DNA of 42,069 nucleotides, taken from a virus (Duplodnaviria; Heunggongvirae; Uroviricota; Caudoviricetes). The translations under genes were made by a program, and so were the position numbers. Position 1 is the first letter of the stretch. Each line of letters starts with the position of its first letter. Positions 35,774 through 38,228 of this stretch are shown piece after piece. The notes beneath the pieces are model-generated. The model searched no databases, had not been told where the DNA came from, and saw only the letters and a program-made list of their open reading frames with translations. Location of the stretch: positions 1 to 42,069 of the IMG/VR virus record IMGVR_UViG_2541047817_000001, one strand, 5' to 3'.

Positions 35774-36574
35774 ATGCATCGTATAGACACGAAAACCGCG
35801 CAGAAGGATAAGTTCGGCGCGGGTAAGAACGGTTTTACCCGTGGTAACCCCCAGACCGGCACGCCTGCCACCGATCTGGATGATGACTACTTTGACATGT
35901 TGCAGGAGGAGCTTTGCAGCGTTGTGGAGGCGTCCGGTGCCAGCCTGGAGAAGGGGCGGCACGACCAGCTACTTACCGCGCTTCGCGCGCTGCTGTTAAG
36001 CCGCAAGAATCCGTTTGGCGATATCAAATCGGATGGCACGGTGAAAACGGCTCTCGAAAACCTTGGTTTGGGAGAAGGTTCGGCATTACCCGTTGGTGTG
36101 CCTGTTCCGTGGCCTTCCGCCACTCCGCCAACAGGCTGGCTGAAATGCAACGGTGCAGCATTTTCTGCTGAAGAATACCCGGAACTGGCAAAGGCTTACC
36201 CGACAAATAAATTGCCTGATTTACGTGGTGAGTTTATTCGTGGCTGGGATGACGGACGTGGTATGGATTCGGGGAGGGCAATATTATCAGCTCAGGGCGA
36301 TGCCATACGTAATATCTATGGTGAGTTCAGAACTGTAAACACTGAAAATTATTCAATATGGGAAACAGCAGGCTCGTTTAAGGGGGCCATAGTGCCATTG
36401 AGTCCCTCTACAAACAATAGTTATTTCTCCTTAACCAGAAGTATGGTGACAGAAAGAGCAGACGGCGCTGTTTACCCAAAAGTGATTGGCCTTGATGCTT
36501 CAAGAATTGTTCCAACTGCAAACGAAAATCGACCCCGTAACATTGCCTTTAATTATATCGTGAGGGCTGCCTGA
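35774..36574 (+). CDS. Tail fibre protein (constant N-terminal part fused to the currently expressed variable C-terminal part)
   Basis: 266-aa ORF; the recombination site 36051-36076 falls at about codon 95-101 (ENLGLGE), marking the constant/variable junction. Confidence 0.8.
36051..36076. repeat. Left hix/gix-like recombination site of the invertible segment
   Basis: Reverse complement reads TTCTCCCAAACC-AA-GGTTTTCGAGAG, close to hix/gix-type sites (AAACC..GGTTT core). Shares a 15-bp perfect inverted match with the right site. Confidence 0.6.
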
Positions 36575-37176
36575 TGGATAAAGCTATATTAAATAAGGAA
36601 CTCATCGCCACAAAGGCGGGATATATTACCGTTTATAATTATGATGGTGAAACGCGGGAATATATTTCTACATCAACTGAATATCTTGCTGTTGGCGTCG
36701 GTATCCCGGCATGTTCTTGTTTAGATGCGCCAGTTACACATAAAGCTGGTTATGCTATCTGCCGCTCAGCAGATTTTAACTCATGGGAATATGTGCCAGA
36801 CCATCGCGGTGAAATTGTCTATAACACCGAAACGGGAGATGCCAAAGAAATCACAGCACCAGGCGACTATCCCGAAAAAACAACCACTCTCGCACCGTTA
36901 ACGCCATACGATAAATGGGATGGTGAGAAATGGGTGACCGATACTGAGGCACAGCATAGCGCCGCAGTAGAAGCGGCAGAAGCACAGCGCCAGTCGCTGA
37001 TTGATGCTGCAATGGCTTCTATCAGTCTGATTCAACTGAAATTACAGGCCGGGCGGAAGCTGACGCAGACAGAAAACACCCGACTTAACGCCGTGCTGGA
37101 TTACATTGACGCAGTGACGGCAACAGATACCAGCACCGCGCCGGATGTCATCTGGCCTGAACTGCCGGAGGCGTAG
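36574..37176 (+). CDS. Tail fibre assembly protein (Tfa)
   Basis: 200-aa protein whose C-terminus (TATDTSTAPDVIWPELPE) matches the conserved Tfa ending; immediately downstream of the tail fibre gene. Confidence 0.8.
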   Translation: MDKAILNKELIATKAGYITVYNYDGETREYISTSTEYLAVGVGIPACSCLDAPVTHKAGYAICRSADFNSWEYVPDHRGEIVYNTETGDAKEITAPGDYPEKTTTLAPLTPYDKWDGEKWVTDTEAQHSAAVEAAEAQRQSLIDAAMASISLIQLKLQAGRKLTQTENTRLNAVLDYIDAVTATDTSTAPDVIWPELPEA

Positions 37177-37621
37177 GCCATTCAATATCTGGAGCACTGG
37201 AGGTATCAACCAGTTCCAGTGCGTCCAGATAATCCAGCCACAAATTATATTGCGCCAGTTCCTCACCTTTCAGACGACCAATAGCCGCTTTACCGGGCCA
37301 TTGTTTACTGTTCATGTATTCGTTGACCTGGTTAATCAATTGCTGCTTTTTCAATTCGGCTGCGGCAATCTGTTCCTCATGTGTTGGTGGTGGAATATCT
37401 GCCCATGATGGCATTCCATCTTCACCAACGCACCTGTATTTTCCTTCTGGTGCTGATTTAAGTGCAAATTCTTCGAAAACAGAATATTTAACGGGTTTTG
37501 CATCTGCTGGAAAAGAATTAGATTTAATATATTCTTGTTTCAAATGCTCAGGGTAAAATGCATTATTTATAGAGCTGTAGTATATTATGCTCGACATTTT
37601 ATAATCCTTATGGAAGCTCAA
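37148..37621 (-). CDS. Alternative tail fibre assembly protein (Tfa') inside the invertible segment
   Basis: 157-aa protein on the opposite strand with the same conserved Tfa C-terminus (TSSAPDIEWPTPP); convergent with Tfa. Confidence 0.7.
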   Translation of the reverse strand: MSFHKDYKMSSIIYYSSINNAFYPEHLKQEYIKSNSFPADAKPVKYSVFEEFALKSAPEGKYRCVGEDGMPSWADIPPPTHEEQIAAAELKKQQLINQVNEYMNSKQWPGKAAIGRLKGEELAQYNLWLDYLDALELVDTSSAPDIEWPTPPAVQAR

Positions 37622-38010
37622 TATCCCAGTACCAGAAAATCACCTGTTTCAGTTGCGGCTGAAGTTGATATAGTCCTTGCAGCACAAATGGCCTTTAATT
37701 CTGTTTTTGTTAGTTCTGACACTCCCCAGGAATTAATACCTATTGGGCCTGTGGATACTGCGGTTTTTTCAGCAATAAATGCCATAAATGCAGAATTTGG
37801 AAAAGCAATAGGATAACTTCCTGTTGCAACACCAGTTTTACTATCAGAAGGTCCGATTCTTCCCCATTGGATAATAAAAGACTTCCCCTCTATAACAGGG
37901 ATTTTTATCCAGCCAGATGATGATAAAGAGCCACTAATCGCAGGCAATTTGGCCGCTTCTCCCAAACCAACGTTTATGAAAATGCAGAAATAACGAGAAA
38001 ATGGCATCAT
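37618..38010 (-). CDS. Alternative tail fibre variable C-terminal segment (silent in the current orientation)
   Basis: Its N-terminal region (NVGLGEAAKLP) parallels the tail fibre junction ([11 protein letters not shown]); the ORF starts at the right recombination site. Confidence 0.65.
   Translation of the reverse strand: MMPFSRYFCIFINVGLGEAAKLPAISGSLSSSGWIKIPVIEGKSFIIQWGRIGPSDSKTGVATGSYPIAFPNSAFMAFIAEKTAVSTGPIGINSWGVSELTKTELKAICAARTISTSAATETGDFLVLGY
37957..37982. repeat. Right hix/gix-like recombination site of the invertible segment
   Basis: TTCTCCCAAACC-AA-CGTTTATGAAAA, in inverted orientation relative to the left site. Confidence 0.6.
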
Positions 38011-38036
38011 TCCTGCTTTTGTCAGAGGGAGCTACC

Positions 38037-38228
38037 ATGCTTATTGGCTATGTTTTCGTATCAACAAATGACCAGAAAATCGATCTACAACGTAATGCGT
38101 TGAACTGTGCAGGATGCGAGCTGATTTTTGAAGACAAGATAAGCAGTACAAAGTCCGAGAGCCTAGGGCTGACACTGCTGTTCTTGATGCAAATTAAAGG
38201 ATTTAATAGTGAGTTGTGGCCTTACTAA
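38037..38228 (+). pseudogene. Truncated serine DNA invertase (Pin/Gin/Hin family), N-terminal roughly 40 codons only
   Basis: MLIGYVFVSTNDQKIDLQRNALNCAGCELIFEDK matches the invertase N-terminus including the catalytic Ser motif (VSTNDQ); after about residue 41 the sequence diverges and stops at 63 aa. A full invertase is about 185-190 aa. Confidence 0.75.

Follow-up and report, generated by a model that had tools for sequence, protein, structure and literature searches.

The tail-fibre inversions of e14, Mu and P1 have been known since the 1980s, and the invertases Hin, Gin, Cin and Pin complement each other across systems. The H segment of Salmonella is reportedly inverted by either of two enzymes, Hin and Fin, the latter encoded by a prophage (Kutsukake et al. 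2006). Experiments in K-12 demonstrated that the P segment of e14 inverts at the repeats TTGGTTTGGGAGAAGG under the action of PinQ, which is encoded by prophage Qin (Kirigo et al., Nucleic Acids Res 2025, PMC12529663). It has also been noted before that some invertible regions have no recombinase close by (PMC9881135). Here, we analyze a switch of this kind in a stretch of 42,069 nucleotides of viral DNA (Caudoviricetes; IMG/VR record IMGVR_UViG_2541047817_000001, positions 1 to 42,069), which we call the window and which is covered over its full length. Judged by its sequence, the locus is a Pin/e14 member of the Hin/Gin/Cin/Pin (Din) family, i.e., an e14 P-inversion switch. A sequence-only reading of the window had proposed a Gin/Pin-type invertible tail-fibre switch, and our results agree: the sites are those of e14, the fibre fusions are in frame both ways, and a stub of pin lies beside the segment. 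We consider it likely that this switch is orphaned rather than locked, in the sense that its cis-acting parts are intact, its own invertase is truncated, and it can be flipped by an invertase provided in trans.

The e14 P-inversion system (stfP/tfaP/tfaE/stfE and pinE) resembles the window in several ways. Both 26-bp crossover sites and the end of the constant part of the fibre are identical. The genes occur in the same order (YmfQ, fibre, Tfa, second Tfa, second fibre, pin, and then a Type IV restriction gene), and the right flank of the segment in the window aligns with the region upstream of pinE and with its 5' end. The two systems differ in the invertase, which is full length in e14 (184 amino acids, aa) and reduced to a stub of 49 homologous codons in the window. 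They also differ in the variable cassettes, which diverge beyond the crossover, and in their cargo, which is mcrA in e14 and a GmrSD-family gene in the window. Finally, e14 is a 15-kb remnant whereas the prophage of the window looks complete. What the locus adds to the known e14 P-inversion is modest, namely the twist of a truncated cognate invertase next to cis sequences that have all been retained.

More distant relatives are the G/Gin system of Mu and the C/Cin system of P1, which have sites that can be aligned with those of the window and the same logic of alternative fibre C-termini with their chaperones. The distance from the centre of the right site to the pin start codon is 67.5 bp, the same spacing as between gix and gin in Mu (67 bp), and P1 has its enhancer in the first 90 nt of cin, at the place where the window keeps the equivalent sequence. 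However, the DNA identity in the 5' region of the invertase is only about 71-72%, Mu and P1 have larger cassettes and an intact invertase, and cin of P1 reads towards the segment. The H segment of Salmonella is also a single segment with more than one Din-family invertase, but it controls a flagellin promoter instead of a fibre coding fusion, and hin is intact. When PinQ/PinR invert the P segment of e14 in trans, the repeat core is the same, TTGGTTTGGGAGAAG(G), and the segment is flipped by an invertase from another prophage (PMC12529663). The difference is that K-12 also has the cognate pinE, whereas in the window trans action would be the only route.

The complete genome closest to the window is that of Escherichia coli LH13-b, which is 99.4% identical over 2.6 kb. 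The features of the locus are the following, in window coordinates (ORF, open reading frame):

35774-36574, plus strand: tail-fibre gene in its current 'on' configuration (266-aa ORF; Pfam Collar PF07484, E=1.8e-15)
36051-36076, no strand: left 26-bp crossover site (pix-type), CTCTCGAAAACC-TT-GGTTTGGGAGAA, the same as the left e14 site of K-12
36064-37969, no strand: invertible segment, 1906 bp from central dinucleotide to central dinucleotide
36574-37176, plus strand: TfaE-like tail-fibre assembly chaperone, which pairs with the current C-terminus (Pfam Caudo_TAP, E=5.7e-32; annotated tfaE in LH13-b)
37148-37621, minus strand: second tail-fibre assembly chaperone, which pairs with the alternative C-terminus (Pfam Caudo_TAP, E=9.5e-36)
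37618-38010, minus strand: alternative fibre C-terminus, gp53-like_C (the ORF starts at ATG 38010, outside the segment)
37957-37982, no strand: right 26-bp crossover site, TTCTCCCAAACC-AA-CGTTTATGAAAA, the same as the right e14 site of K-12
38037-38228, plus strand: remnant of the pin invertase gene (63-codon ORF, ATG 38037; a pseudogene in the LH13-b annotation)
38055-38126, no strand: equivalent of the recombinational enhancer, corresponding to nt 19-90 of the invertase gene and lying wholly within the retained stub
38262-40151, minus strand: GmrSD-family Type IV methyl-directed restriction enzyme (629 aa; Pfam GmrSD_N and GmrSD_C; PADLOC mREase_IV, 1481 bits, full length)

Each of the crossover sites is identical at 26 of 26 positions to its counterpart in the e14 P segment of K-12 MG1655. 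They can also be aligned with the annotated cixL of P1 and with gix of Mu (TTCCTGTAAACCGAGGTTTTGGATAA, at the annotated boundary of the G segment), so that the likeness to known systems, which the sequence-only reading had left to be checked by alignment, is now established. The sites lie in an inverted repeat with arms of 20 nt each (36058-36077 and 37956-37975), 95% complementary, separated by 1878 nt and sharing a perfect 15-nt core, TTGGTTTGGGAGAAG. When the window was searched with the 26-bp Din-type consensus TTCTCNNAAACCWWGGTTTNNGAGAA, allowing up to 3 mismatches, the only 2 matches in 42 kb were these two sites, against 0.01 expected from shuffles. Together, the repeat scan and the consensus search recover the two inverted sites and the perfect core that had been described before. 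The central dinucleotides, TT at 36063-36064 and AA at 37969-37970, are compatible with inversion. No third crossover site was found in the window with the same consensus and threshold, and the inner half-site with at most 1 mismatch gave 2 matches only. This rules out a multi-site shufflon or Min-type system, which would have at least three crossover sites. A second inverted repeat (37095-37116 and 37217-37238, 22 nt, 82%) is found at the overlap of the convergent tfa genes. It probably reflects the conserved coding sequence of the chaperone C-termini (LDYIDAV and LDYLDAL) rather than a recombination site.

The fibre genes have an organization of the Sc/Sv/U type, with a constant N-terminus outside of the segment, two pairs of C-terminus and Tfa inside it, and an in-frame fusion both ways (266 aa or 213 aa). 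In the current orientation, the constant N-terminal part (35774-36063) is followed by a variable C-terminus with the Collar domain (36064-36574). The constant part is homologous to stfP of e14 as far as the crossover site, and divergence begins immediately beyond. When we simulated an inversion at the central dinucleotides, the stretch 37618-37969 joined the constant part in frame and produced the 213-aa fibre, and the GLGE codons spanned the crossover at both junctions. Hence, the ORFs and Pfam matches bear out the convergent C-terminus/Tfa pairs flanked by the sites, and the simulation bears out a crossover within the GLGE block in both orientations, two points that had been made from the sequence alone. 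The silent C-terminus is part of a 130-aa ORF whose ATG (38010) is outside the segment, like stfE in e14. The sequence AGGA directly adjoins this ATG, which is a poor spacing. After inversion, the leader starting at 38010 would be fused to the cassette with the Collar domain, a parallel to the StfE2 chimera of K-12, which is reported to block the adsorption of phage T2.

The invertase gene next to the right site is clearly a remnant. A tblastn search of the window with PinE of K-12 aligned residues 1-49 at 38037-38183 with 82% identity, and from about 38184 on the sequence is unrelated to pin. The Pfam Resolvase match covers residues 3-45 only, within the N-terminal domain. The product therefore lacks the oligomerization helix and the DNA-binding domain, and falls far short of a full-length invertase of about 184-193 aa. 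The codon of the catalytic Ser9 is kept (VFVSTNDQ), whereas the conserved arginine close by, Arg7, has become Phe. The sequence-only reading had thus been right on the truncation, on the loss of the C-terminal DNA-binding domain and on the retention of the serine codon. The number of N-terminal codons left is about 49 homologous ones instead of about 40, and the catalytic motif is altered at Arg7. Tblastn-type searches with PinE, PinQ, Gin, and Cin revealed no other serine recombinase gene in the 42 kb. The pin remnant is certainly non-functional and the locus makes no recombinase. This confirms that any inversion needs an invertase in trans, as had been proposed. A scan for promoters and terminators around the stub gave nothing above the shuffled expectation.

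The part of pin that remains includes the region where an enhancer is expected. In the GenBank record of P1, the cin enhancer is annotated at 31678-31749, which corresponds to nt 19-90 of cin. The enhancer of Hin is 65 bp long, lies about 100 bp from hixL and has ATTTA and TAATG tracts between two Fis sites (PMC3798978). As its place is in the first 90 nt of the gene, the region was spared by the truncation. In the window, it corresponds to 38055-38126, which places it 85-157 bp away from the right site's centre. This stretch is identical at 66 of 72 positions (92%) to the functional pinE of K-12 and contains the TAATG tract. The claim that no recombinational enhancer remains is thus not supported, as the sequence equivalent to it is present in the stub. 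Only two 15-mers of the form G-N13-C occur in this stretch (38058-38072 and 38107-38121). Both are identical to those of pinE, and we infer that they are candidate Fis cores. They are 49 bp apart, which is not an exact match to the spacing of the Fis sites of hin, which we take to be 48 bp.

These elements suggest how the switch could work. A Type IV restriction cassette would have replaced the 3' part of pin at about codon 49, with the loss of the switch's own recombinase, while both crossover sites (TT/AA) and a Fis-type enhancer region would have survived as cis parts. The enzyme acting in trans could be PinQ or PinR of lambdoid prophages, or a Pin/Gin/Cin-type invertase from another prophage, a plasmid, or an infecting phage. 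Once bound to both sites, it would bring them together at the enhancer and carry out the strand exchange between the two central bases. The inversion would then swap the Collar-type C-terminus and TfaE for the gp53-like C-terminus and its own Tfa.

To follow the orientation of the segment, we turned to complete genomes of E. coli. The junction of the pin truncation is found in 303 out of 5426 of them. Two of these, PK8276 and TUM17668, have a remnant ORF identical to that of the window and a right flank identical to it at 697 of 701 positions. When compared with each other, they are identical in the left flank (1191/1191) and in the right flank (3531/3531), and their segments are identical (1827/1827) only as reverse complements. 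Their inner half-sites differ (GGTTTAAGAGCA and GGTTTGGGAGAA) and are found on exchanged sides, whereas the outer ones have not moved. The uninterrupted inverted identity around the centre of these sites is only 7 bp (TTGGTTT). Since the identity is so short and the half-sites are swapped, the exchange must have taken place at the central dinucleotide, as expected of a serine invertase but not of homologous recombination.

NU14 and IHE3034, two genomes of sequence type 95 (ST95), have another allele of this truncation, in which Arg7 is intact and a deletion of 1 bp leads to a stop after 40 codons. Here too the flanks are identical (959/959 and 930/930) and the segment matches completely (1927/1927) as the reverse complement. 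Using junction-specific queries, we counted 78 ST95-type genomes in the orientation of NU14 and 23 in that of IHE3034, the latter at 99.9-100% identity. Both orientations occur among O18:K1 strains (UTI89, NU14, and APEC O18 on one side, IHE3034 and PMV-1 on the other) and among O1:K1 strains (APEC E16002 and APEC O1, respectively). We take this to imply more than one inversion event. As genomes with the same stub are found in opposite orientations while being otherwise 100% identical, the orphaned switch flips in nature after the truncation. The suggestion that the locus is locked is therefore not borne out as a property of the locus, given the opposite orientations of PK8276 and TUM17668 and of NU14 and IHE3034.

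Some carriers of the stub show decay. TBE6 has an ISVsa5 in the cassette beside the stub. In PT62, the expressed fibre gene is truncated and the inner half of the left site is altered (GGTTTAGGAGAA). A separate observation concerns the RefSeq genome of Z1323HEC0475, which is listed as complete and includes a circular 'plasmid' of 1878 bp (NZ_CP148330.1, 1-1878) that corresponds exactly to the sequence bounded by the repeat arms, positions 36078-37955 of the window, with 99.2% identity. The segment is missing from the chromosome of this assembly, and a query joining the left and right flanks found no record in which the segment is deleted. This 'plasmid' is almost certainly an artefact of the assembly graph caused by the invertible segment. 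It hints at the presence of both orientations in that culture, and we did not use it as evidence.

Which invertase might act in trans was assessed by appending an invertase gene to a unique flank and counting the matched places in each record. These counts are crude, as they come without coordinates and ignore plasmids. PinQ and PinE are only 38% identical at the protein level, and genes of the PinQ type escape the pinE bait. Absence in such counts was treated as uninformative. In the chromosome of LH13-b, the C-terminal 405 nt of pinE matched one place (the flank only) and the pinQ bait matched two. From these matches, LH13-b appears to carry a PinQ/R-type gene and no second PinE/Gin/Cin-type gene. 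The pinQ bait matched three places in PK8276 and two in TUM17668. A second PinE-like match was counted in about 25 of 60 ST95-type genomes. The excess of such matches in the flipped ST95 genomes (7/10 against about 19/50) was rejected as evidence, as it is not corrected for phylogeny.

The best surviving alternative is that the segment is frozen in this host for lack of its own invertase, the alternative cassette being a decaying fossil, and we consider it rather unlikely. It has in its favour a pin remnant without function, a window with no other serine recombinase gene, the blastn search of the LH13-b chromosome, which revealed no second sequence like those of PinE, Gin, or Cin, and the reported lock of the K-12 P segment after the deletion of pinE. 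It is at odds with the two cassettes and the two Tfa genes, all of which are intact ORFs, and with the modules that have identical remnants, are found in both orientations and differ in nothing else. The retained enhancer region, the PinQ/R-like gene that LH13-b appears to carry, and the ability of PinQ to invert these sites also argue against it.

Several observations nevertheless weigh against an orphaned switch that flips in trans. The orientation evidence comes from other genomes, and flipping in the source host would depend on the rest of its genome. The enhancer stretch differs from that of pinE by 6 substitutions, and the binding of Fis to it is a prediction. Among the flipped genomes, blastn revealed no second Pin-like chromosomal sequence in PMV-1 and GN06489, a search that is blind to PinQ-type genes and to genes on plasmids. 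Finally, the deletion of pinE in K-12 is reported to lock the P segment in spite of the presence of pinQ and pinR, in a study that makes no mention of an enhancer (PMC12529663). This result suggests that the native levels of trans-acting invertases may be low. Yet, Keio-type deletions take nearly the whole ORF and, by their design, should take the enhancer as well. If so, the lock does not separate the loss of the enzyme from the loss of the enhancer. The natural allele has kept the enhancer, has lost the enzyme, and still flips, which favours the enhancer as the indispensable cis part.

A different explanation for the two orientations, RecA-dependent homologous recombination between short inverted repeats, is highly improbable. 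The repeats of the window and of the ST95 genomes do share 15-20 bp, and a homologous exchange would give the same product. However, in PK8276 and TUM17668 the uninterrupted identity of the two sites is limited to 7 bp, which is much shorter than RecA requires, and the exchange is exact and central. This short identity led us to reject a homologous origin of the inversions. The recurrence of both orientations within one clonal group also argues against it. Even less credible are assembly artefacts, because, while assemblers can mishandle invertible segments, as when the 1878-bp segment of Z1323HEC0475 is listed as a circular 'plasmid', some 100 complete assemblies, produced independently, divide into two exact configurations whose junctions are perfect, and an alternative junction requires read support that itself implies inversion.

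The wider context of the switch is a prophage. The window encodes an integrase, XRE/Cro-type immunity, replication functions, a Q antiterminator, lysis genes, terminase, an HK97 head, and a Mu-like contractile tail, along with homologues of YmfL, YmfR, and YmfQ. The element of LH13-b, apparently also a complete prophage, has the order integrase, lambdoid regulation, lysis, terminase, HK97-type head, and Mu-like contractile tail with baseplate, and includes homologues of YmfL, YmfR, and YmfQ. The window thus appears to be a complete e14-like prophage, a full-length relative of e14, and it probably shows the form that e14 had before it decayed to the 15-kb remnant of K-12. At the end of the prophage, the pin stub runs into the 3' end of the GmrSD-family gene, which occupies the same place as mcrA in e14. 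An exchange of defence cargo at this end likely removed the 3' three-quarters of pin and left the Type IV restriction gene in its place. Beyond the restriction gene lies an ORF of 311 aa with low GC content (about 33%; 40737-41672, plus strand) that has no match in Pfam or PADLOC. With these two genes, the end of the prophage looks like a hotspot for defence cargo.

The module itself is found in different prophage backbones. When PK8276, TUM17668, NU14, and IHE3034 were compared with positions 36000-40400 of the window, it was shared at 99-100% identity. The common module consists of the last ~65 nt of the constant part of the fibre, the segment, the stub of pin, and the restriction gene. Around it, the backbones differ in the baseplate gene (YmfQ or DUF2612) and in the N-terminus of the fibre, and the downstream neighbours of the module also vary (the paoD side, DinI/GIY-YIG, or retron Ec67). 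Recombination seems to carry the module from one prophage to another.

One may speculate on why a piece of pin has been kept. We put forward tentatively, as a possibility less likely than not, that the stub of about 150 bp is kept by selection as a stand-alone enhancer, the switch having been handed to the invertases of other prophages (PinQ/PinR). A single ancient truncation that is found in at least three prophage or flank contexts, persists in 303 of the 5426 complete E. coli genomes and still flips would fit this idea. If it is true, the fibre switch (or the switch of a StfE2-like surface protein) would be a shared and externally controlled element, located in a defence-cargo hotspot beside a Type IV enzyme. 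In any case, a switch need not be frozen when its invertase is truncated, since the enhancer of this family occupies the first 90 nt of the gene and E. coli commonly has invertases that act in trans. This should be kept in mind wherever annotation is the only basis for calling phase-variable loci. The locus is also a natural test of the inversion of e14-type segments by PinQ/PinR, and of the loss of the enzyme versus the loss of the enhancer in the deletion of pinE.

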